From a phage: a stretch of DNA of 64,000 nucleotides. A program made the position numbers and the translations under genes. Below the pieces are notes generated by a model. The model ran no database searches. It saw nothing but the letters and a program-made list of their open reading frames with translations, and was not told the origin of the DNA. Of this stretch, positions 3,618 to 64,000 are shown in pieces. The stretch's first letter is position 1, and each line of letters begins with the position of its first letter. The stretch lies in the sequence record PZ445451.1; one strand, given 5' to 3'.

Positions 3618-6392
3618 TTAGTTTATCAGTTTATTTATGTCTGGTAAAAGATTTATTTCACCTAAGAAATCACCTTCACCTTCCTCTAGCCAACTCTCAT
3701 ATGCTTGTGCATGATTATAGTTACCATCAAAAGAATCTGCAACAAATTTTTCTACAGTTTTTCGAGATGTGCCAGCGCCAAATACACCAAGTTTAATACT
3801 ATTGATCGGTAAAGTGGTGCTTGTTGGTACTTTCTCTGTTGCAACACGGTTGATATCTATAATCTCCTGTACGGTTGTGTTCCATTGTAAGCATTTAACA
3901 CAACGGGTATGCGCTACATACAGTAGGTTTCGCTCTGCCTCTTCCAGTCCTACCCATTCACCAGTTTTTTTATCATAATTGGAAGGAAAATCATTAGCAA
4001 CAATAACCTGATCCCACTCCAAACCTTTAGACTTGTGTGCTGTAGTCAATGTGACTTTTGCTGTAGGAGAATTTCTATGCGTTCTAAGTGTATGTGCTAT
4101 AGTGTTTGCCTTGCCAGAAACTACGATGTTTAACAAGCGTTTAGCATCTGGATCAGCCTCTGCACACTCAACAAATTCATTCCAGTCTGCGTAAGGTAAT
4201 ACAGTTTCATGTTTTACTTTCTCAATATCTCCTCTCCGAAGAGCATTAACACTATCTACCATAGAGATAAAATCCCTGGTATCTACGTTAATAATAATTT
4301 CTTCCCCATCTGCAATACGATCCATTGCCTCCATAAGCAAGGTTAAATTCTTGCGAAAGATGATAGTGTAAGGTTTTGTATAGTCTACAACATCTGATTT
4401 GTAGCTACCTACTACAGTATCAAAGCCTTTACCAACCAAAGGATGACGCAAAGGTTCTTTATCGCTTAAAATCATATTGGCAATGTTTGCCACTTTGGGG
4501 CCAAAACGGAAGCAAGCAGTTAATGGAAGCTCTGCCCCATACTTAGCTGTTTCAATCATCATATTAGAGCTACCTCTAAATTGATAAATGCAGTTGTGGC
4601 TAAGAATTTCATTGCCAAAGAAGTTAGCAGTATCCTCTACTTCAATATCATAATAGATACCCTCACTATCTACAATGTCCACAATCTCTTCTGCCGTTAC
4701 AGTATCACCATCTTTTACCAACACAGACATGCCTTTAAACAAACCCGCTGCCGGAATTAAGTTATATTTGGCACTGTTCACAGAGGACATGCATTCTTTT
4801 AAAGATGCAAACGGAACTATTTCAAGGATCTTTTGTGCAAAACTCAATGCTTCACGATAAGAATTGAAATATTTACGTACACGGTAACGACCTTCCAATT
4901 TAGCAGCACTTACGCTTACACCTGCTTTAATCAGTGAAGAATAGATCGGCATTTCACTTTCTGTCCACTCAAAACTAACTTGTGTTCCTTTACAACCTTG
5001 TGCTCGCAAAGTCACTGTTAGCATTTTTCTTTCATCTACTGCACAATTGATGCTGTGCCAGTGTGGATAAGCAAAATGATAATCTTTATCCTCTAAAAGT
5101 TTAAAACCATTTTGTCCGAATTGTTCAAAGATGTTATTGATCCTTTCTTGATTAATGCCGCGTGAACTTGCTTCAAATACACAAGTAGGAATGCCATATT
5201 GTAAACTGTATGCCATTTCTTTTTCCATAGCAGCTTCACGGTTTTCAACAATATCCAACACCCATAATTTCTGTGCTTTTTCAGAACGTGTACGTTGCCC
5301 CAGTTTAGAAAAACCTTCTTTATCATCGAATTTGTTAGTGATCCCTACTCGGAAACCTAAATCTTTCCTCCACATTAGGTATACCACCATCTGATCATCT
5401 TTCAGAACATAGGATGAAGCCCAAATACGATGGTTATGTGTCATATCTAAAGTTTTACCTGTGGCAGTAATAATATTCCTACCTTTTGTACGTGTAGATA
5501 AAGTCTTATTTGTTACTTTTCTAAATGTAATTTTACCATTAGAATAAGACTCTACCTTATCACCGATTTGTAGGTCTTTCATTGTAACCTGACCATTCTC
5601 GGTATTAAGTACCGTGTTTTCCGACACACATTGGAATTCATCGCCCACTACCACAATTTGTTTTGCAGATTTAGCATTTCGCAGAATAGACAAGAATGCA
5701 GGGTTAACATCCTGGAATTCATCACCAAAAATAATGTCATAACCAAGATCAGCACCTGATAACTCAAACAATTTTACATAGGTGTCATGCGTCATCAAAG
5801 TATCTGTGTTAGGATCAATGCGCTCTCGCCACAATTGTTTTGCATACTTAACTACTTCTGTAATTAGTTTGTGTTCGTTAATACCTTTTCTTTTAATATC
5901 TGCAAGATGTACACCAGGGAAATGTTTACGGCTGATAAAAGGATCATCCGAAAATTCAAACTTACCTACGGTTTGCTTGATCATTAAACCAATCATAGCA
6001 CGAGTTAAAAGTGTTTTCCCTCGTTTATCAATAAGATTATTAATCTTAAATTTCTTTGCTATCTCACTACCTGTACCTGCAACGTTAACATACTGTCCTT
6101 CTGGTCGTGACAGTTTTGCACGTAAACGATGATCCAGGAATTGATAGCAAATGGAATGCAATGTACGGCATTCTACATTTGGTGGCATCTTACGCCGTGC
6201 TTCTTCTGCCATGCTTTTATTGAAAGCTAAGTAAAGAATGCGATCTTCTGTACTGTTAGCCAGCAAATAAAGTGTTGACGTTTTGCCTGATCCAGATTTA
6301 GCTTGGATAGTTAAAAAACGATGGTCTGGAAAAGCCTCCTTAATAGCTGTTTGCTCTTCTGTTGGAGTAAAACTCAACTCTTTCTTAGCCAT
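3618..6392 (-). CDS. SF1 UvrD/PcrA-like DNA helicase, intein-containing precursor
   Basis: Track ORF; start moved to MAKKELSF (ATG 6392). Walker A AKSGSGKTSTL, motif II FGDEFQD, motif III GDEFQ|CIYQFRG split by an in-frame insert, C-terminal TTAHKSKGLEWDQVIV..LLYVAHTRCVK. Confidence 0.85.
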   Translation of the reverse strand: MAKKELSFTPTEEQTAIKEAFPDHRFLTIQAKSGSGKTSTLYLLANSTEDRILYLAFNKSMAEEARRKMPPNVECRTLHSICYQFLDHRLRAKLSRPEGQYVNVAGTGSEIAKKFKINNLIDKRGKTLLTRAMIGLMIKQTVGKFEFSDDPFISRKHFPGVHLADIKRKGINEHKLITEVVKYAKQLWRERIDPNTDTLMTHDTYVKLFELSGADLGYDIIFGDEFQDVNPAFLSILRNAKSAKQIVVVGDEFQCVSENTVLNTENGQVTMKDLQIGDKVESYSNGKITFRKVTNKTLSTRTKGRNIITATGKTLDMTHNHRIWASSYVLKDDQMVVYLMWRKDLGFRVGITNKFDDKEGFSKLGQRTRSEKAQKLWVLDIVENREAAMEKEMAYSLQYGIPTCVFEASSRGINQERINNIFEQFGQNGFKLLEDKDYHFAYPHWHSINCAVDERKMLTVTLRAQGCKGTQVSFEWTESEMPIYSSLIKAGVSVSAAKLEGRYRVRKYFNSYREALSFAQKILEIVPFASLKECMSSVNSAKYNLIPAAGLFKGMSVLVKDGDTVTAEEIVDIVDSEGIYYDIEVEDTANFFGNEILSHNCIYQFRGSSNMMIETAKYGAELPLTACFRFGPKVANIANMILSDKEPLRHPLVGKGFDTVVGSYKSDVVDYTKPYTIIFRKNLTLLMEAMDRIADGEEIIINVDTRDFISMVDSVNALRRGDIEKVKHETVLPYADWNEFVECAEADPDAKRLLNIVVSGKANTIAHTLRTHRNSPTAKVTLTTAHKSKGLEWDQVIVANDFPSNYDKKTGEWVGLEEAERNLLYVAHTRCVKCLQWNTTVQEIIDINRVATEKVPTSTTLPINSIKLGVFGAGTSRKTVEKFVADSFDGNYNHAQAYESWLEEGEGDFLGEINLLPDINKLIN
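4593..5630 (-). mobile_element. Intein (346 aa) inserted in helicase motif III
   Basis: Insert begins CVSENTVLNTENG (block A), has TxxH-like MTHNHRI (block B) and ends ..YYDIEVEDTANFFGNEILSHN followed by extein Cys. Removing it restores GDEFQCIYQFRG. Coordinates derived from track residue numbering (residues 268-613). Confidence 0.75.
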
Positions 6393-54266: not shown

Positions 54267-54533
54267 TTACTCCGCAATCTGAGCCATGAATTCACGTAGT
54301 TCAGAAAAACCTCCTACGTGGGTTAGCTGTTCACCATCTTCCACAAAAATCTGAGGAAATGTGCGTGGTAGAACACCTGTTTTCTCTAAAACCAGATTCT
54401 GAATCTGATCTAAAGAATAGTCTTCATCTAAGGTAAGGTATTTAAAATCCTGTTCACGCTGTTCCAGTAGAATCTTAGCGTTAGTGCAGAAAGGACAATT
54501 TGGTTTACCGTAGATAATAAAATTCATTTTCAC
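54267..54533 (-). CDS. nrdC: NrdC-like thioredoxin/glutaredoxin
   Basis: Track ORF; 88 aa, IIYGKPNCPFCTNAKILL..FPQIFVEDGEQLTHVGGFSELREF parallels T4 NrdC (VYGYD..CVYCDNAKRLL..QVFAPDGSHIGGFDQLREY). Confidence 0.8.
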   Translation of the reverse strand: MKMNFIIYGKPNCPFCTNAKILLEQREQDFKYLTLDEDYSLDQIQNLVLEKTGVLPRTFPQIFVEDGEQLTHVGGFSELREFMAQIAE

Positions 54534-55360
54534 TCCTTGTTTAAAAGTATAGTTAAAGTTCTTACAATACCGCTATCAACACTTCGCGGATTTAAAGTAG
54601 GATCTGTTTTTAAATAAGATGTTGCTGGTCTGACTGCTTTGGAATTATAGGTTGAAGCAGATACAGGATTAACTGTAACAGACAAATCTATAACAAGAAA
54701 TATCTTTCGTGCAAAATCATACCAAGAAATATAATCTGCACCTGCATAGTGTACAATTTTACTATTTACACCATCTTTTACAAGTTTAAAAATTGTTTCT
54801 GCAAGATCAGGTGCATAAGTAGGACATGATAAATGATCACATACTACATTAAATTCTTTTTGACCACCGTTGTAGCGTTCCAACATAGTTTTCAAAAAGT
54901 TATGTCCAAATTCACTATAAACAGAAGCTGTTCTGATAATAAGTGCTGTAGGACAAACTGCTTGTACTAAAGTTTCACCTAATTGTTTACTGTAACCGTA
55001 GGTGTTCAAGGGGTTTGTTTTACTCTCTTCTGTGCCAGCAACATGTCCATCAAAAACATAGTCTGTTGAAATATGTACAAACTGTATCAGTAAATCATTA
55101 CATGCTTTGGCAATGTTTGTTGCACCGTATGCATTAACATTTATACAGGTGTTAACATCTTCTTCAGCTTTATCTACTGCCGTGTAAGCCGCACAATTCA
55201 CAACAACATCAGGCACGTGCTGTACAAGACTATTCATAACATCTTTAAAGTTGGTAATGTCTATATCACTTGCTTCAATCAAAATAACATCTTCGGGCGC
55301 AACTTTTGCCAAAGACTGTCCTAATTGACCTTTTGAACCAAAGACTAAAAATTTTGTCAA
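54530..55360 (-). CDS. rmlD: dTDP-4-dehydrorhamnose reductase
   Basis: Track ORF; N-terminal LVFGSKGQLGQSL Rossmann motif, size and operon position after rmlC. Confidence 0.8.
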   Translation of the reverse strand: MTKFLVFGSKGQLGQSLAKVAPEDVILIEASDIDITNFKDVMNSLVQHVPDVVVNCAAYTAVDKAEEDVNTCINVNAYGATNIAKACNDLLIQFVHISTDYVFDGHVAGTEESKTNPLNTYGYSKQLGETLVQAVCPTALIIRTASVYSEFGHNFLKTMLERYNGGQKEFNVVCDHLSCPTYAPDLAETIFKLVKDGVNSKIVHYAGADYISWYDFARKIFLVIDLSVTVNPVSASTYNSKAVRPATSYLKTDPTLNPRSVDSGIVRTLTILLNKE

Positions 55361-55911
55361 AATATGATCTCCTTTAGTGTTTTGGCTTCCTGATCTTTTT
55401 GTGACAAGATAGGTTTAAAATTAATATCATTAAAGATTAAATCAAAACCCCAATCTATATTGATATCTGGATCATTCCACGCAAGACTACACTCTGAAGT
55501 CGGATCGTAATATTCCGTACATTTGTATTCAAAATCAGCAATATCACTAATCACAACAAAACCATGAGCGAAACCAGGAGGAATCCAAAATTGTGTTTTA
55601 TTCTTTTCAGATAAGAGAACACCTACCCATTCTCCAAATGTTGGACTACCAACTCTAATATCTACAGCAACATCATAAACTTCACCACGAACACAACGTA
55701 CTAACTTCCCTTGTGGGTTTTTCTTTTGAAAATGAAGCCCACGTAGAACTCCTCGGATAGAACGTGAATGGTTATCTTGGACAAAGTTTTGTTTACCTAT
55801 GTATTGATCATATAAAGCCTGATTAAAACTTTCTAAGAAAAAGCCACGTTCATCTCCGTAAACGTCAGGTTGAATGATCAACAAATCTTCGATTTTTGTT
55901 GCTTGAATCAT
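55357..55911 (-). CDS. rmlC: dTDP-4-dehydrorhamnose 3,5-epimerase
   Basis: Track ORF; ..DERGFFLESF..RGLHFQ..QGKLVRCVRGEVYDVAVDIR..PPGFAHGF typical RmlC cupin motifs. Confidence 0.85.
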   Translation of the reverse strand: MIQATKIEDLLIIQPDVYGDERGFFLESFNQALYDQYIGKQNFVQDNHSRSIRGVLRGLHFQKKNPQGKLVRCVRGEVYDVAVDIRVGSPTFGEWVGVLLSEKNKTQFWIPPGFAHGFVVISDIADFEYKCTEYYDPTSECSLAWNDPDINIDWGFDLIFNDINFKPILSQKDQEAKTLKEIIF

Positions 55912-55923
55912 TTAATTCCCCCT

Positions 55924-56793
55924 TTATTTTAATTTAAGTAAATACTTACCGTAGTCTGTTTTACTTAAAACCTCTCCAGAACTTTTTACAGAGTCTAAAG
56001 TAATCCATTCATTTTTAAAAGCAATCTCTTCCAGGCATGCAACCTTCATACCTTGTTGCTTCTCTATTGCATGAACAAATTGAGATGCTTCCATAAGACT
56101 TTCATGTGTTCCTGTATCCAGCCAAGTGAAACCTCTTCCTAGTTTACAGACACGTAAAGTCTTTTCTTTCCAGTACATCTCATTTATATCCGTAATCTCT
56201 AACTCCCCTCTAGCAGAAGGTTTAACGCTCTTAGCTTTCTGTATAACAGAATTATCGTAAAAGTACAAGCCTGTGATTGCGTAGTTGCTTTTTGGTGTTT
56301 TTGGTTTTTCTTCAATACTCACCACTGTACCTTCAGAATCAAACTCAACAACACCAAATCTTTCAGGATCATTTACGTGATACCCAAAAATATTAGCTCC
56401 ACCATTCTTTTCAATATGTTCTTTAGCAGAATCTAAAATGCTACCAAAACTCTGACCAAAGAACAAATTATCACCTAGAACAAGTGCTACAGAATCTTCA
56501 CCAATAAAGTTCTCACCAATAATAAATGCTTCTGCTAAACCTTTTGGGCTGTTCTGTACTGCATACTGTAGGGAAATACCAAAAGAAGAACCATCACCTA
56601 AAAGATTTACAAAATTAATTTGATCTTCTGGTGTTGTAATTATTAGTATTTCCCTAATTCCAGAAAGCATTAGGACAGAGAGTGGATAATAAATCATAGG
56701 CTTATCGTAAATTGGTAATAGTTGTTTACTAACCCCTTTAGTAACTGGGTAAAGTCTTGTTCCGCTACCACCTGCTAAGATAATACCTTTCAT
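55924..56793 (-). CDS. rmlA: Glucose-1-phosphate thymidylyltransferase
   Basis: Track ORF; [36 protein letters not shown]. Confidence 0.9.
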
Positions 56794-56801
56794 ACTCCTC
56801 C

Positions 56802-57791
56802 TTAAACTTTATTTTCCCACCACTCTTTGTTATCTACATACCAATCAATGGTTGAATAAAGTTTTTCTTCAAATGTGCCTTTAGCTTTCCACCCTAATTC
56901 CTTTTCAATCTTATAAGGATTCACTTCATATCTTAGATCATGTCCAGGTCTATCTGTAACCATCTCAATTAGGCTACAAGCATCTGTTTCAGATGGATAC
57001 ACCGCATCCATATAATCACAAATCATATAGATTACATCAATATTAGTTCTAGGGTTTCTGCTCCCAATATTATATGTTTCTCCAGATTTGCCTTTAGTTA
57101 CTACTAGGTGTAATGCTTCTGCGTGATCGTCAACGTATAACCAGTCTCTTACTTGAAGACCATTGCCATAAACAGGGATTGGTTTATTCATCAAGATATT
57201 TGTTATCGTTTTAGGTATCAGTTTTTCTGGATGATGATATGCTCCAAAATTATTTGAACAATTTGTTATAACTGTCGGAATACCATAAGTACGATGCCAC
57301 GCTCTTACCAAATGATCGCTTGCTGCCTTAGATGCAGCATATGGACTACTTGGCTTATAAGGATTCTGTTCTGTAAACGGATAATCCCCTTCTTCCATAT
57401 CACCATACACTTCATCTGTTGAAATATGATGAAACATTTTAAGATTTGATTTATCTCCCATTAAACGAACAGCTTCTAGAAGATTAAATGTTCCAACAAT
57501 ATTTGAATTTATAAAAACACTCGGTGATGCTATTGAATTATCTACGTGACTTTCTGCTGCAAGATGCATTATATAATCTGGGTTAACATCTGCCACAATC
57601 TTAGCAGTTAACTGAGCATTTGTCAAGTCAACACGACAAAACTTTACATTAGGTGTTTCTGATAAATTTCTAGGGTCTGAAGCGTAACCCCATTTATCTA
57701 TAACGTAAATATCATTCTTAGTATTTTTAGCCAGGAAACGAACTACTGCACTTCCAATAAAGCCTAAACCACCTGTTACTAAGTATTTCAT
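56802..57791 (-). CDS. rmlB: dTDP-glucose 4,6-dehydratase
   Basis: Track ORF; [31 protein letters not shown] (YxxxK), HISTDEVYG. Confidence 0.9.
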
Positions 57792-58646: not shown

Positions 58647-58857
58647 CTTTTTCTCCTTTGATAATTTCAAACTTGGCTACACCATTAACTATAATGTGAC
58701 CGCAAGACATAACTCCTAGCCAATGATCACCATTCTTTTTTAAACGTTTACCGTAAACATCACAGAAACCATTCTGTAATTCGGAAGCCTCATAAGAGGC
58801 TCCCTTTTCGAAAACGTCTTTGAAGTCAGAAATTAATCCAACACAAAGTAGTTTCAT
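58639..58857 (-). CDS. Hypothetical protein (72 aa)
   Basis: Track ORF immediately downstream of nrdB. Confidence 0.5.
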   Translation of the reverse strand: MKLLCVGLISDFKDVFEKGASYEASELQNGFCDVYGKRLKKNGDHWLGVMSCGHIIVNGVAKFEIIKGEKDD

Positions 58858-59942
58858 TAGAAGTCTAACTCCTCGTCATCACTTACATCTTTATTTGCTG
58901 AATTCAGTTTGTAAGCTGTAATTTGGATCTCCTGTGCTGCTGCTTGAATTTGATCTGGATTTAACCAAACATCCATCCAAGGCAGTGGACTTTTCTTCGG
59001 TGCACGGAATTTGTGTTTCATTTTCAGTCTGCGATAGATAGGCGCGGCATTGAAGTAAACCCAAAGTTTGAACAACTCTGCGTTACCACCAACGATAACC
59101 CTTCCTTCACTAAACAGATAGTCACACCAATCTTCCTCTTGTCCAACTACCGTATCAAGAATTTCTGTCAGAACGTCGATATTATCTTCGTATACTTTTC
59201 TCCAGACAGGATCTTTCAGCAGTGCATCAATAATAGCATAATCCATTTTAACGTGCAATAGTTCATCCAACATAATTTTTTGAATAAGTTTAGCTGCACC
59301 TACAAACAGTTGCTGCTCTGCTAAGGCAAATGTTGCAGCAAAAGATGATATGAATTGAATGCCTTCCAGACCGATAAGTGCAATCATTCCTTTCAGAATC
59401 AGTAGACGAAGGTTATCATCCTTCTCAATCAGACCTAGAGCATATTTATGTCCTGCCTCTGCCAGATCACTCATTATCTCTTCAACTATACCCATCCTCT
59501 GGAAGATTCTTTCGTTCTCCATAATCTGATCGATAACTTCATTTGGATTAGGGATACACTGACGAATAATTTCAGAATATGTCAAAGCGTGTAAAACTTC
59601 CATTTCTGATTGCTTCATCATCATTGCACATGCTTCGTTGTTGCTTAAAAATGGTGCAAACAAAGTGATGATTGATTTAGCAAGTGAATCATTTTCCCAC
59701 TGGAAAGATAGGTTTTTGATCATAACATCATAGTTGCTTTTAGAACAAGCTACGAAATCTTTTCGTGTCTGATCTAAGTTTACTTCGTTTTCATCCCAAT
59801 CTTGCTGTTTTTGTAGTTTGTACAGGCGATGCATTTCTGGGTATGTTACGTTAATAGAATCAAAAATACCTAACTGTTCGCCCAAAAATACAGGGTAGAA
59901 ACCTTCTTTGTAAGTGTCGTTGTATAAATTAATTGCTGCCAT
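58857..59942 (-). CDS. nrdB: Ribonucleoside-diphosphate reductase small subunit (class Ia NrdB)
   Basis: Track ORF; 361 aa, ferritin-like di-iron ligand helices (..EVLHALTYSEII.., ..LEGIQFISSFAATFAL..), acidic C-terminal tail DDEELDF; continuous ORF with no intron. Confidence 0.9.
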   Translation of the reverse strand: MAAINLYNDTYKEGFYPVFLGEQLGIFDSINVTYPEMHRLYKLQKQQDWDENEVNLDQTRKDFVACSKSNYDVMIKNLSFQWENDSLAKSIITLFAPFLSNNEACAMMMKQSEMEVLHALTYSEIIRQCIPNPNEVIDQIMENERIFQRMGIVEEIMSDLAEAGHKYALGLIEKDDNLRLLILKGMIALIGLEGIQFISSFAATFALAEQQLFVGAAKLIQKIMLDELLHVKMDYAIIDALLKDPVWRKVYEDNIDVLTEILDTVVGQEEDWCDYLFSEGRVIVGGNAELFKLWVYFNAAPIYRRLKMKHKFRAPKKSPLPWMDVWLNPDQIQAAAQEIQITAYKLNSANKDVSDDEELDF

Positions 59943-60264
59943 TTAAATCCTCCACAATATCACACATTGCTTTTATTGTATCAATGTGTTCTCTCTCCAT
60001 ACCATTCTCTATGTAAGCCTTCTCTAATGCGTTCCATACACTCTTTGTGAGTAGTACAGTAACCTCTCCCTCATATCTTGCCCTGGTTAAAGCATACCAG
60101 GTAGCTTCGGGATCATTGGAAGCCCATATTTCAACACTGGAAAATTGAAAACCTGCAATATGATGACAACACCAATCGAATGTAAAATCTTTACTATCTA
60201 CCAGTGTATAATTGCCCCAACGCCTTTGTGGTGTTGCCCCAGGTAATACAACTAATGTAGGCAT
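59929..60264 (-). CDS. Hypothetical protein (111 aa)
   Basis: Track ORF; start moved to MPTLVVLPG (AAGGAGG SD) so that the GC hairpin after nrdA is not coding. Confidence 0.5.
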   Translation of the reverse strand: MPTLVVLPGATPQRRWGNYTLVDSKDFTFDWCCHHIAGFQFSSVEIWASNDPEATWYALTRARYEGEVTVLLTKSVWNALEKAYIENGMEREHIDTIKAMCDIVEDLNGSN

Positions 60265-60305
60265 ATTCCTCCTTAAGAAATGGGGGACAAAGCCCCCTAG
60301 CTTCA

Positions 60306-62567
60306 TTACATCTTACAAGACTCACAACCGGATTCTTCATCCTCTTGAGCGAGTGAGGTTGCTGATTTTGTTCGACTATTTAGATAGTACAAAGATTTAC
60401 CACCAAGTTTTGCAAACTGAAGGATATATTGCATTTCTGATTTAATGGATAAACGACCACCTTCCATCTTAGAATAGTCAATCCACTTGTCACATGATGC
60501 ACCTTGATCTAAGAATTTAGTCAACAGTCCATATGCTTCAGCCATATCTTTATCTGGCGTATCCCAAGCCGATTGGTAAATATCTTTTAGTTTATCGTAA
60601 TCTGGCACAATAAACAAGACATTACCTTTTTGGCTTTGTTTATAAACTATAGTATCACGTACAGGATACACAGAGTTAGTCGTATTACTTACAAGACTAC
60701 TGGACTCATTCGGAGCAATAGCTGCTAATACACTATTTCGGATACCACCTTGTGCAATTATATCTTGTCGTAAACCTTCCCAATCCATTTTAAGTTTAAA
60801 ATTGCCAATATCGTCTACAGCTTTAGCGTAGGTATCAATAGGCAACCATCCTTCAGGCCATTTGGTTTTATGCATCCATTCTGCATTACCTTTCTCTTTT
60901 GCCAAACGAAGAGAAGCTCTTGCTAACCAGTAATAATGTATTTCTGCTAATTCGTGAATTAGTTTTTTGCCGTAAGGATCTGAATAAGTAACAAAATTAC
61001 TTGCCAGATAATGTGCAAGGTTTGTAATACCTACACCGATAGACCTACGTGCTTTAGCAGTGATTTCGTTATGTTTAAACGGATACTGCATTGTTTCAAT
61101 CACATTATCAATAGTTAGAACGGTATAATATGCAACATCTTCATATTCTTCTGGTGTAACACGACCAGCTACAATAGAAGACAGGAAGCATAATGCCAAT
61201 TCTTGGTCTTCTGTATTCTCACCTGTGAAAAGATCAGTCATATTGTGAAATGCTTTCGTAGGTAAGAAAATTTCTTGGCACAAGTTTGACTGGTAAATAA
61301 CATCCTTAAACGGAGTATGCTTATTAACATTATCCGCAAAGAACATATAAATACGTCCTGTTTCTGCTCTTTGTGTAATAATTTCTGCCAGAAGATCTCG
61401 TGCTTTTACAAACTTCTTCTTAATTCGTTTGCGACTAACTTTTTCATATACTTCTTCAAACTCTTCCTCGCTTTTATAAAGCGCCTCATAGAGTTCTGGT
61501 GCTTCGTCATAACTGACTAGCATCCAATCTTTACCTTTTGCTGCACGGCGCAGGAAAGCATTGTTTACTACAATAGAGTAATCAAGTTTATCTACTCGTT
61601 TTTCACTAACAGTAGTTGGATTTTTCAAACGTACCAGATCTTCAAAATCAGGTTCCAATATTGTAAACGTTACTGTTGCACTTCCACCACGGCTTGCTTG
61701 TTTTGATGCTCCAACACTTGTTTCCATCCATTTCAGATATGGTAAAAGACCACCGTGAACTATACGGTTGTTCTTAACACCTTGTCCTGTAGCACGGGTT
61801 TGGAGGTTAACACCAATACCTGCATTATTCAATGTATATTCATGAGCAAGATAGTTAGCAATTGCTAAAGATTCTGCTGTATCATCTGCTCTAAACAGAC
61901 AACAAGAAGCACTACCTTTAATCTTAGTACGCAAAGTTGTTAAATAAGGTGATGGTAAATTAATCTTAAGATCACTTACGTAGGTATATAGACGTTTAAT
62001 GTCTTCTACTCTGCGATCTTTTGGTTGAATTTCCATTACCTTCATTGCTACACCAATGAATAAAAACTGTGGTGATTCAAAAACCACATCATTGATCGCA
62101 TCTTTCACAAGATACTTATCAACCATCTGGCGCAGTACGGAATAACCATAAGTTAGGTTTTTATCATGATTGATAATTTTACCAATCTCAATAATTTCTT
62201 CTTCTGTATAATCCATTTTCCCCCAATAGCCTTTACTTACAGACATATTGTAGAAATCCAGGAGGGAGGGGATATTGTGATATCCCCCATGAGCCTGTTT
62301 ATAGATCATACCAAGAAGTAACCGACCTGCCATATCACTATATGCCTGATCTTTCTTATCAATACATGCTGCTATCATAGCTTTATGTAAATCACGAGTA
62401 GGCACACCGTCGTAACAACGTTTAACAGCTTCGAGTTCAATTTCAGACCAATTTAATTTACCAGCAGCAAACTCTGACCATTTACGAAGTTTTTCTGGAT
62501 TAAATTCTTCTTTCTTGCCGTTTGTTTTTGTTACATAACGGATAGATTTGCTTAGATACTGAGTCAC
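60306..62567 (-). CDS. nrdA: Ribonucleoside-diphosphate reductase large subunit (class Ia NrdA)
   Basis: Track ORF; 753 aa, N-terminal ATP-cone-like segment, C-terminal Cys pair ..SGCESCKM, gene order nrdA-nrdB. Confidence 0.9.
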   Translation of the reverse strand: MTQYLSKSIRYVTKTNGKKEEFNPEKLRKWSEFAAGKLNWSEIELEAVKRCYDGVPTRDLHKAMIAACIDKKDQAYSDMAGRLLLGMIYKQAHGGYHNIPSLLDFYNMSVSKGYWGKMDYTEEEIIEIGKIINHDKNLTYGYSVLRQMVDKYLVKDAINDVVFESPQFLFIGVAMKVMEIQPKDRRVEDIKRLYTYVSDLKINLPSPYLTTLRTKIKGSASCCLFRADDTAESLAIANYLAHEYTLNNAGIGVNLQTRATGQGVKNNRIVHGGLLPYLKWMETSVGASKQASRGGSATVTFTILEPDFEDLVRLKNPTTVSEKRVDKLDYSIVVNNAFLRRAAKGKDWMLVSYDEAPELYEALYKSEEEFEEVYEKVSRKRIKKKFVKARDLLAEIITQRAETGRIYMFFADNVNKHTPFKDVIYQSNLCQEIFLPTKAFHNMTDLFTGENTEDQELALCFLSSIVAGRVTPEEYEDVAYYTVLTIDNVIETMQYPFKHNEITAKARRSIGVGITNLAHYLASNFVTYSDPYGKKLIHELAEIHYYWLARASLRLAKEKGNAEWMHKTKWPEGWLPIDTYAKAVDDIGNFKLKMDWEGLRQDIIAQGGIRNSVLAAIAPNESSSLVSNTTNSVYPVRDTIVYKQSQKGNVLFIVPDYDKLKDIYQSAWDTPDKDMAEAYGLLTKFLDQGASCDKWIDYSKMEGGRLSIKSEMQYILQFAKLGGKSLYYLNSRTKSATSLAQEDEESGCESCKM

Positions 62568-62578
62568 TTCCTCTCCTA

Positions 62579-62839
62579 TTAATTGTGCATGTTTAGAACA
62601 TCTACATCATAACCGCCACGCATCTCATTATATAAGCCATTTGCGTATAGAAAACCTTCAAAATGATCTATACCTTCAAAACCTTTTGCCTTTGCTTTGC
62701 GGTCTGCTTCTTGTCTTTTTGGGGATAATCTTTTAGATGTATCAAGGATAACTGTTACATTGCAACCTAATGTTTCATCAAAATAGACTTCAATTTCACA
62801 GCCTTCATATTTATTACTTTCTGTCATTTGGCCTCTCAA
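62579..62839 (-). CDS. Hypothetical protein (86 aa)
   Basis: Track ORF. Confidence 0.5.
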   Translation of the reverse strand: MRGQMTESNKYEGCEIEVYFDETLGCNVTVILDTSKRLSPKRQEADRKAKAKGFEGIDHFEGFLYANGLYNEMRGGYDVDVLNMHN

Positions 62840-63250
62840 TTAGAATTCAGAATCATCATCTCGTGATGGATCATGTTCATTTCCGAAGTCTTCCATTTTG
62901 ATATGAGAGCTACCCCAACCTGTAAAATCTTCTTCTCCAAAGTGCAAAATATCTACACCTTGATAGATTCGCTTATATTTATAGTCTTGTCGAACTGGGA
63001 AAGTATACAATGTAGTATTTGCAAACACCACACGTCGATTGTTGTTACTACGAATATTAACACCACGTTCTACTGTATAATGTCCATCGGTAGACATACC
63101 AAGCATTACTAATGCTGCTCGCAATGTAGTGTTATGATACTCGTGAGGAATTTTTCCTCCGTGTTTTTTAGCCATTTCTTTCCAGATCGGTGTAGCCTTA
63201 ATGGTAGACATACTTACGGTCGCCCAAACGGTTGTATTAATTAGTGACAT
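62840..63250 (-). CDS. Hypothetical protein (136 aa)
   Basis: Track ORF. Confidence 0.5.
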   Translation of the reverse strand: MSLINTTVWATVSMSTIKATPIWKEMAKKHGGKIPHEYHNTTLRAALVMLGMSTDGHYTVERGVNIRSNNNRRVVFANTTLYTFPVRQDYKYKRIYQGVDILHFGEEDFTGWGSSHIKMEDFGNEHDPSRDDDSEF

Positions 63251-63348
63251 AAATTCTCCTTCTCTCTTTTTAAGGAGAGCTACGCTCTCCTAACGTTAGC
63301 CTATACTACACGAATCTCAATTAAAAGTCAACTATAATTTTAAGTTGA

Positions 63349-64000
63349 TCACCATTTTGTATGGTTAGTCAAAAGTTGACGATGTTGAATCCAACCACAG
63401 AAGTTTCCACTCCACAAACGATGTTTACGATCCATATGTGTAATACCTTCTTCCCAAGAGGTAGGGAACGGAGGAATATTAATACCACCTTTCTGTTGTT
63501 TTAATCCTGACAAATCCATTTCTTTCATTGGCGTTGCCTGGTGTTCAAACGGAGATGCATGTACCTTTTGTCCAGACAGCAAACGAGAATAGATATCCAA
63601 TGCTTTATCTTTGGTATCATTCAATTTACGATAACTTACCTGAGCGCAACAAGAAGCTGAAATAGCTTTTGCTTCCTCTTCTGTCAACATTTTCTCGTTG
63701 GAGAAGGTTTCACCCAAGAAATAACGGATCATACCAGTTTCTGGATCTCGATCACGATTAACGTAAGGTGTATGCCATTCCCCTGGGAAAAGAAGATATG
63801 GTTCAGAAGATTCATACAGTTTTTTAATTTCTTTAGCAAGAGCCTCAATAGTAGGATCTGCATCAGCATCTACGCGCAACCACAAGAAGTTTTCTAGCTC
63901 TGTAGTGGTTACTACAGTCTTCATACGCTGGAATGGTTCTAGTAGGCGGTTTGCAACCTGTTTATGATAACCAGCAAGGGCAAACTCTTCTGCAAAACGT
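63349..64000 (-). CDS. Putative flavin-dependent thymidylate synthase (ThyX-like), 5' end beyond window
   Basis: Track ORF stays open in-frame to the window edge (..RFAEEFALAGYHKQVANRLLEPFQRMKTVVTTTELENFLWLR..). Segments resemble ThyX motifs (ANRLLEP..TVVTT..NFLWLR; HASPFEH; RKHRLWS) but order and spacing are atypical; no ThyA motifs. Confidence 0.4.
   Translation of the reverse strand, partial: RFAEEFALAGYHKQVANRLLEPFQRMKTVVTTTELENFLWLRVDADADPTIEALAKEIKKLYESSEPYLLFPGEWHTPYVNRDRDPETGMIRYFLGETFSNEKMLTEEEAKAISASCCAQVSYRKLNDTKDKALDIYSRLLSGQKVHASPFEHQATPMKEMDLSGLKQQKGGINIPPFPTSWEEGITHMDRKHRLWSGNFCGWIQHRQLLTNHTKW

Follow-up and report, generated by a model that had tools for sequence, protein, structure and literature searches.

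What kind of thymidylate synthase does Escherichia phage PaulScherrer encode beside its ribonucleotide reductase genes, and why do the motifs of this protein occur in an order that does not fit the known enzymes? The 64,000 nt stretch of DNA analysed here (the window) lies wholly within the genome of this phage (Bas60, MZ501100.1; Justusliebigvirus, phi92-like), and window positions 60000-64000 correspond to 124675-128675 of the record with 100% identity. The gene in question is a thyX-type open reading frame (ORF) on the minus strand, with its stop codon at 63349-63351, 216 codons inside the window and its 5′ end past the window edge. The original prediction, made from the DNA letters alone, had described a ThyX-like rather than ThyA-type enzyme with either a rearranged or a duplicated fold, and had noted the missing 5′ end. 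The public record supplies it: the frame is bas60_0224, a protein of 323 amino acids (aa) labelled ‘thymidylate synthase’, of which the window covers residues 108-323. The full coding sequence is L001:9350-10321 (minus strand), and its 5′ 321 bases, which encode the T-H-R...S-x-R motif, lie beyond the window end. We conclude that the product of the frame is probably a flavin-dependent thymidylate synthase (ThyX, or FDTS), represented in the window by its C-terminal two-thirds. It belongs to a large subfamily, found mostly in viruses, whose structural elements follow a non-canonical order. The public annotation already identifies the gene as a thymidylate synthase of the ThyX type, and only the topology is new information.

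The profile comparison proposed with the original prediction could be made with the complete gene. The full protein scores 36.9 bits against the Pfam profile PF02511 (Thy1) and passes the gathering threshold of 24.8 bits, with an alignment that spans only residues 22-170 and profile positions 59-186 of 191. The window fragment alone reaches 19.7 bits, under this threshold, and aligns to profile positions 146-186. In PHROGs the protein belongs to phrog_85, ‘thymidylate synthase’ (E=2e-77). An AlphaFold2 model based on 119 homologues forms one compact domain (predicted local distance difference test score 92, predicted template-modelling score [pTM] 0.90), and the best 50 Foldseek matches of this model in the PDB are all ThyX or PolB chains. 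Because the phrog_85 match is this strong and the structure searches return only ThyX-type folds, the resemblance exceeds chance, even though a plain sequence search of the PDB with the native sequence gives no match at E<=10.

ThyA, on the other hand, is not in evidence. The ThyA profile PF00303 (Thymidylat_synt) matches neither the fragment nor the full protein at E<=1. A tblastn search of the whole phage genome with E. coli ThyA gives a best E value of 5.3, and the same search with E. coli FolA returns nothing; both query sequences were approximate. The annotation of the 150-kb phage record likewise lists no ThyA, no dihydrofolate reductase (DHFR) and no second thymidylate synthase. The protein is a distant member of the ThyX family, which bears out the ThyX-like character first proposed.

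The atypical arrangement becomes clear when the elements are read along the chain. Canonical ThyX begins with N-terminal strands, followed by two helices ending in G-H-x-(S/T)-P-x-E-H, a strand, the motif R-H-R-x7-S-x-R, a helical region, a further strand and finally N-x-x-x-L-R...A-Q-x-E-I. In the phage protein, the N-terminal strand (residues 6-14) runs straight into the strand and motif region ‘IVTFELEYPRIIHSELMTHRLFSRNAASSR’ (residues 21-50). The two helices and H-A-S-P-F-E-H are instead found at residues 212-260, past the L-R motif (residues 148-149), and so depart from the canonical linear order. The order along the protein is thus the R125 region, a beta strand, NFLWLR and then HASPFEH, whereas the HxxPFEH element comes first in canonical ThyX. 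All five segments originally quoted (ANRLLEP, TVVTT, NFLWLR, HASPFEH and RKHRLWS) are present in the translation in that order. The features of the gene within the window are as follows.

63349..64000, minus strand: 3′ part of bas60_0224, residues 108-323 and the stop codon (window 100% identical to MZ501100.1)
63787..63999, minus strand: second half of the canonical ThyX core, residues 108-178, with helices, a strand (132-139) and a helix (156-171) (HMMER alignments with Thy1 and 1kq4/3n0b; AlphaFold2 secondary structure)
63934..63954, minus strand: ANRLLEP, residues 123-129 (column counts and alignment)
63904-63918, minus strand: TVVTT, residues 135-139 (string located in the translation)
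63874..63891, minus strand: NFLWLR, residues 144-149 (column counts, alignment, PMC6514825)
63688..63786, minus strand: connector with the family-specific G-E-W-H-x-P-Y and short beta strands, residues 179-211 (conservation, AlphaFold2)
63541..63687, minus strand: relocated helix-helix-HxSPFEH module, residues 212-260 (transposition tests, AlphaFold2 helices, intein site)
63541..63561, minus strand: HASPFEH, residues 254-260 (alignment, column counts, PMC6514825)
63418..63525, minus strand: phage-clade-specific insert, residues ~266-301 (alignment with cellular homologues, column counts)
63409-63429, minus strand: RKHRLWS, residues 298-304 (string located in the translation)
63379..63414, minus strand: W-S-G-N-F-x-G-W-x-Q-x-R tail motif, residues 303-314 (conserved family-wide)

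Residues 108-178 are co-linear with residues ~125-200 of Thermotoga maritima ThyX, and for the connector (179-211) no counterpart was identified in canonical ThyX. The module, in which the AlphaFold2 model has helices at residues 214-226, 237-249 and 255-258, is homologous to T. maritima residues ~20-59, which in canonical enzymes precede the RHR motif.

This relationship was examined by transposing the module in silico: residues 179-260 were put ahead of residues 21-178 and the protein was rescored. The Thy1 score rises from 36.9 to 48.8 bits, and profile coverage grows from 59-186 to 13-186. With phmmer against the PDB, the transposed protein goes from no match to T. maritima ThyX at E=1.2e-4, aligned over chain residues 33-211 of 232. 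The same operation on three relatives (37-38% identical) increases their Thy1 scores from 29.8 to 39.5, from 32.8 to 42.2 and from 30.7 to 40.2 bits, and a fourth relative in the same identity range moves from no match to 17.0 bits. In controls in which the module was reversed or shuffled, the score falls to 34.5 and 31.8 bits, respectively. The gain from transposition is due entirely to residues 212-260.

Profiles give a corresponding result. From one set of 26 sequences we built a profile in native order and another in rearranged order. The native-order profile matches only the C-terminal helices of T. maritima ThyX (18.6 bits, E=0.0088), whereas the rearranged profile reaches 35.8 bits (E=5.7e-8) over two stretches of the chain, 31-102 and 136-212, and also picks up 6J61, PolB and the Helicobacter pylori and Mycobacterium tuberculosis enzymes. 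Sequential structure alignments cover 135-159 of 191-245 target residues, and Foldseek aligns about 153 columns at a template-modelling score of about 0.5; such partial coverage is expected of a fold with one non-sequential segment. In the relative P0248, taken unaltered, residues 544-582 form the best Thy1 stretch and align with profile positions 15-58; the total is 23.2 bits and no stretch is significant alone, which makes this case supportive only.

Together, these data show that the atypical element order is real, in agreement with the rearranged fold first envisaged. The helix-helix-HxSPFEH module, ~50 residues long, has been relocated from before the ThyX motif to behind the core. From the alignments and the similarity of secondary structure, we infer that it packs where the N-terminal module sits in canonical ThyX. 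To see whether the N-terminal strand (residues 1-17) corresponds to the canonical strand ahead of helix 1, we placed it before the module; this adds no Pfam score (48.4 versus 48.4 bits), which makes a strict circular permutation and the transposition of one segment indistinguishable by sequence. The literature yielded no account of the permuted topology, the T-H-R signature or the conserved C-terminal tail; since the searchable literature is incomplete, we regard the rearrangement only provisionally as undescribed.

Conservation was counted over 129 representatives at 37-62% identity; residue equivalences were taken from HMMER alignments, and residue roles follow a review (PMC6514825) on the structures of the enzymes from M. 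tuberculosis and H. pylori. The ThyX motif is present as T38-H39-R40-x7-S48-S49-R50, outside the window, a variant rather than the literal form of R-H-R-x7-S(-x-R). Threonine (T38) replaces the first RHR arginine in 125 of the 129 sequences, and H39, S48 and R50 occur in every one. Four of the five contacts to deoxyuridine monophosphate (dUMP) are kept, M. tuberculosis R87, S105, R107 and R199 corresponding to R30, S48, R50 and R149 (97-100% of the 129); the fifth, R95, is the position taken by T38. Among the five contacts to flavin adenine dinucleotide (FAD), three are kept (H96, R97 and S71 as H39, R40 and S256), while R95 and R190 are replaced by T38 and T140. The first RHR arginine contacts both FAD and dUMP, M. 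tuberculosis R199 is a dUMP-contacting arginine and S71 is an FAD contact (PMC6514825).

Within the window, N124-R125 is near-invariant, with R125 in 128 of 129 sequences and aligned at or beside T. maritima R147. N144 and R149 are invariant (R149 in 129/129), and R149 is equivalent to T. maritima R174 as well as to M. tuberculosis R199. In the module, H254, S256, E259 and H260 are conserved in at least 95% of sequences and align with T. maritima H53, T55, E58 and H59; H254 is present in all 129. Furthermore, the family has invariant residues of its own, namely G77-M78 in a long loop, K120, H183 and P185 in GEWHxPY, S229 and R231 in module helix 1, and N306, Q312 and R314 in the tail, where R314 is again found in 129/129. 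We propose that this C-terminal tail motif may replace one lost cofactor-binding arginine. Across sequences of only 37-50% identity, about 16 positions remain invariant and about 30 nearly so, and these are concentrated at canonical active-site positions.

RKHRLWS is a different matter. It had been listed among the ThyX segments, presumably as the RHR motif, which the complete gene locates at T38-H39-R40 instead. Its ‘RKHR’ is variable even between close relatives and sits at the end of the phage-clade insert (~266-301), which is lacking in homologues from Saccharibacteria, Eremiobacterota, Thermosynechococcus and Svornostia.

The rearranged form is widespread. A profile search of 1.84 billion representatives returned 5420 clusters (defined at 50% identity) at E<=1e-3 and 3145 at E<=1e-30, most of them of 290-345 aa with full-length matches. 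The gene is present in 1035 phage records, including phi92, rV5, ICP1, N4 (gp30 region), PAK_P1-like and KIL-like Pseudomonas phages, Caulobacter phages and N4-like roseophages, and the phage copies are labelled (putative) thymidylate synthase/ThyX or hypothetical. N4 gp30 and its roseophage homologues have been named putative thyX and are paired with deoxycytidine monophosphate (dCMP) deaminase (PMC2784036, PMC11934525).

Relatives are also encoded by cells. With one genome taken per prokaryotic species, 341 loci encode relatives, many of them in Saccharibacteria and in Eremiobacterota/Vulcanimicrobiota, on megabase contigs; further cases are Svornostia abyssi and metagenome-assembled Thermosynechococcus genomes. 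These homologues share the rearranged architecture. On a Saccharibacteria contig the neighbours are ftsZ, nrdR and the argininosuccinate lyase gene (argH), and on a Candidatus Lustribacter (Eremiobacterota) chromosome they are gltX, a glmU-like gene, msrA and prs. Such a non-prophage setting among housekeeping genes of reduced genomes would be expected of a genuine thymidylate synthase. Because they lack the phage-clade insert, the cellular versions are shorter, with about 260-285 aa in those copies that were checked from Saccharibacteria and Lustribacter. The loci are located as follows.

Genome contigs, cellular loci with rearranged thyX: L069 5001-5777; L041 4998-5846; L063; L018

In relatives of 520-680 aa, one protein is interrupted by inteins that bear LAGLIDADG or splicing domains; the junctions read ...H|C...GN|C/S... 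(P0129, P0135, P0137, P0146, P0149, P0162, P0175, P0184, P0186, P0193, P0205, P0210, P0220, P0222, P0243, P0248, P0268 and P0269). Four insertion sites are used: H33/S34 just upstream of T-H-R, S48/S49 within S-S-R, the position after L-R-x-H151, and the position directly after H254. Inteins usually occupy the most conserved functional motifs of essential proteins, and the site inside H-A-S-P-F-E-H therefore supports an active-site role for this element. The PaulScherrer thyX has no intein. The DNA polymerase and UvrD helicase genes of the phage each have one; the intein-containing UvrD/Rep helicase gene is annotated at window positions 3618-6392 (minus strand; record 68293-71067), and the polymerase gene lies outside the window.

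Does a protein with this organization carry out the ThyX reaction? The gene most likely serves to supply thymidine monophosphate (dTMP) for phage replication, dTMP being the predicted product. By the mechanism of canonical FDTS, reduced protein-bound flavin would accept the methylene group of methylenetetrahydrofolate (CH2-H4folate), and the methylene and a hydride would be passed to C5 of dUMP to give dTMP and tetrahydrofolate (H4folate). H183, R231 and the tail residues N306, Q312 and R314 may compensate for the substitutions at T38, T140 and A51, and the enzyme is predicted to be oligomeric with shared active sites. Canonical ThyX enzymes bind FAD, form homotetramers in which three subunits share an active site, and depend on NADPH and CH2-H4folate to make dTMP. 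ThyX chemistry regenerates H4folate, so that DHFR is not required. The lack of a DHFR gene in the phage fits this chemistry, and PaulScherrer would make its own dTMP alongside ribonucleotide reductase (RNR), thymidine kinase and nucleotidase-like genes. For phage biology this is an ordinary conclusion.

Several observations weigh against this interpretation. The protein scores 35.5 bits with the NCBIfam thyX equivalog TIGR02170, well below the cut-off of 87.9. A hidden Markov model of the module alone scores 7.4 bits with T. maritima ThyX, a marginal similarity that ranks first of 5001, the best of 5000 shuffles reaching 6.3 bits. When the C-terminal half was compared with the single T. maritima sequence by hhalign, the module remained unmatched and only an irrelevant 19-column match was obtained, a single sequence being a weak template. 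Our literature search found annotation-level statements on the subfamily and no assay or solved structure of a member. Finally, T38 is joined by two further subfamily-wide changes, T140 for the R190 equivalent, the second arginine at the FAD phosphate (126/129), and A51 for the lid tyrosine Tyr108 (129/129), and with these contact residues substituted, cofactor binding must differ in detail.

The last point bears on the most serious competitor, in which the ThyX fold supports another reaction, so that the changed cofactor residues and the extra tail would mark new chemistry and not a repackaged thymidylate synthase. Candidates are a dUMP or dCMP hydroxymethylase, a PolB-like uridine monophosphate (UMP) methylase, or a methylase that uses flavin mononucleotide (FMN) or another reductant. 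Three canonical contacts replaced family-wide (R to T38, R to T140, Y to A51), the score under the thyX equivalog cut-off and the presence in the phage of a deoxythymidine diphosphate (dTDP)-sugar pathway of unknown purpose are in its favour. However, the dUMP-binding or activating residues R30, S48, R50 and R149 are invariant or nearly so, as is H254; bacterial chromosomes carry a member of the family as a housekeeping gene in single copy; and no other thymidylate synthase was found in the phage. N4-like phages, moreover, pair the gene with dCMP deaminase, a supplier of dUMP (PMC2784036, PMC11934525). The phi92-like phages have been described as ‘exceptionally susceptible’ to restriction-modification systems (PMC8594841), and this high sensitivity argues against a role in base hypermodification. 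On balance, we regard another reaction as unlikely. We would give the same low weight to the related possibility that the subfamily differs in its cofactor mode or reaction, with FMN in place of FAD, another reductant, or a hydroxymethyl or other C5 product. It is similarly doubtful that the fixed loss of two flavin- or nucleotide-binding arginines and the lid tyrosine, along with the gain of H183, R231 and R314 as invariant residues, is the sign of such a difference.

The duplicated fold raised by the original prediction would make the protein a tandem or pseudo-dimeric ThyX, its C-terminal 145 residues being a degenerate second domain with HASPFEH and RKHRLWS as its motifs. In this phage HASPFEH is indeed followed by a short strand and later by ‘KHRLWSGN’, which resembles ‘RHRIASYN’, and permuted proteins classically arise when a duplicated gene is trimmed at both ends. 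Yet comparison of residues 179-323 with residues 1-178 by hhalign detects no similarity (E=0.29 over 15 columns), only one Thy1 stretch is found, and the C-terminal 145 aa alone give no Pfam match at E<=10. The supposed second motif fares no better, since ‘KHR’ is unconserved in relatives and lies in the insert that cellular homologues lack. The N-terminal part is without precisely the module that the C-terminal part supplies, and the model is one compact domain (pTM 0.90). The ~640 aa relatives, which might have passed for tandem ThyX proteins, are intein-split, and this explanation for them is ruled out. An internal duplication is therefore very improbable.

We give even less credence to the idea that the protein is a ThyX remnant without catalytic activity, retained as a structural or regulatory component, for example as a partner of the phage RNR or of a nucleotide-synthesis complex. 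What favours this idea is the loss of the first RHR arginine and of the lid tyrosine. But the invariant and near-invariant positions persist and cluster on the active site, intein homing sites fall in or beside conserved motifs, and the bacterial context is that of a housekeeping gene. An active FDTS with a rearranged topology best accounts for the data.

How this FDTS relates to characterized enzymes can be stated more precisely. Canonical ThyX proteins (T. maritima TM0449, PDB 1O26; M. tuberculosis, 2AF6; H. pylori, 3AH5; PBCV-1 A674R, 4FZB) share with it the Pfam family, a co-linear core extending from the strand that precedes the ThyX motif as far as the helix that follows L-R...AQxEI, and conserved equivalents of T. 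maritima H79, R80, S88, R90, R147, N169, R174, H53, T55, E58 and H59. The phage enzyme differs from them in that the helix-helix-HxxPFEH module is ~170 residues further downstream, behind the core and not before the motif. The phage family also has T-H-R in place of R-H-R, with Thr and Ala at the equivalents of M. tuberculosis R190 and Y108, and adds an NQxGMQ loop (74-79), GEWHxPY (180-186) and the WSGNFxGWxQxR tail. Its length is 323 aa, compared with about 190-250 aa. In PolB, a ThyX-like UMP/dUMP methylase from polyoxin biosynthesis (PDB 4P5A), the elements follow the canonical order, and its gene is part of an antibiotic gene cluster. Nothing in the phage case points to UMP over dUMP as the substrate.

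A second comparison is with phage T4, which encodes the ThyA-type td next to nrdA. Like the phage thyX, td lies in a nucleotide-metabolism cluster beside nrdA/nrdB, and the predicted product, dTMP, is the same. However, there is no relationship of sequence or fold, since PF00303 gives no match and the phage genome contains no ThyA-like sequence. Furthermore, T4 carries frd, whereas PaulScherrer is without a DHFR homologue (by annotation and tblastn with an approximate query). The phage thyX is a functional replacement of td by an unrelated enzyme.

ThyX works by an unusual mechanism and is a target for antibacterial drugs. To our knowledge, all solved ThyX structures share one topology. Few thymidylate synthase genes are commoner in phages than those of the rearranged T-H-R-type subfamily (N4-like, ICP1, rV5/phi92-like and PAK_P1-like phages), whose annotation is based on a partial Pfam match. 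Recognition of the rearranged topology explains why standard profiles match no more than two-thirds of the domain and why the NCBI equivalog model misses it. The subfamily also offers a natural way of asking which contacts ThyX can do without, with T38, T140, A51, H183, R231, H254 and R314 as the residues singled out. Should the cofactor or reaction prove to be different, the label ‘thymidylate synthase’ would be mistaken, in mechanism or in function, for thousands of phage genes.

The neighbourhood of thyX accords with a role in nucleotide supply. The gene order on the same strand is tk, an NT5C-like gene, thyX, two small ORFs, nrdA, a small ORF and nrdB. The position claimed for thyX, next to nrdA where T4 has td, is accordingly correct in that nrdA lies downstream in the same cluster, but the two genes are not immediate neighbours because the two small ORFs intervene. 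The downstream genes in the window are as follows.

62840..63250, minus strand: conserved ORF of 136 aa between thyX and nrdA (phrog_15711, E=2e-89)
62579..62839, minus strand: small conserved ORF of 86 aa between thyX and nrdA (phrog_15807, E=1e-56; the record annotates 62579-62827)
60306..62567, minus strand: nrdA, class I RNR alpha subunit (frame list and annotation)
58857-59942, minus strand: nrdB (annotation)

Upstream, thyX starts 9 bases downstream of the NT5C-like ORF, which itself overlaps tk. This close spacing of tk, the nucleotidase-like gene and thyX suggests that they form one thymidine-nucleotide operon. The NT5C-like gene encodes a ‘hypothetical protein’ of 196 aa at L001:10331-10921 (minus strand; record 129005-129595, just past the window end), and its product has a near-threshold match to the NT5C profile, 5′(3′)-deoxyribonucleotidase (22.9 bits versus 24.8). 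The 136 aa ORF has a weak IMP_cyclohyd-like Pfam match, under threshold at E=0.01.

Downstream of thyX, a promoter scan of the 98-base spacer (63251-63348) found two promoter-like sites where 4.2 are expected, which is not above chance. One sigma-70-like site in this spacer, on the minus strand, reads TTGACT-17-TAGTAT (63331-63303). An 8-bp GC-rich hairpin (about 63273-63291) before the ribosome-binding site of the next gene is also within chance (z-score -0.5).

Beyond nrdB, the phage encodes a complete dTDP-L-rhamnose pathway, with homologues of rmlB, rmlA, rmlC and rmlD at window positions 54530-57791 (minus strand; record 119205-122466). The BASEL paper describes these genes as putative dTDP glycosylation machinery with an unknown target. 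They adjoin a glutaredoxin gene and lie a few kb from nrdB, and they are tied to the thymidylate genes because the pathway consumes deoxythymidine triphosphate.

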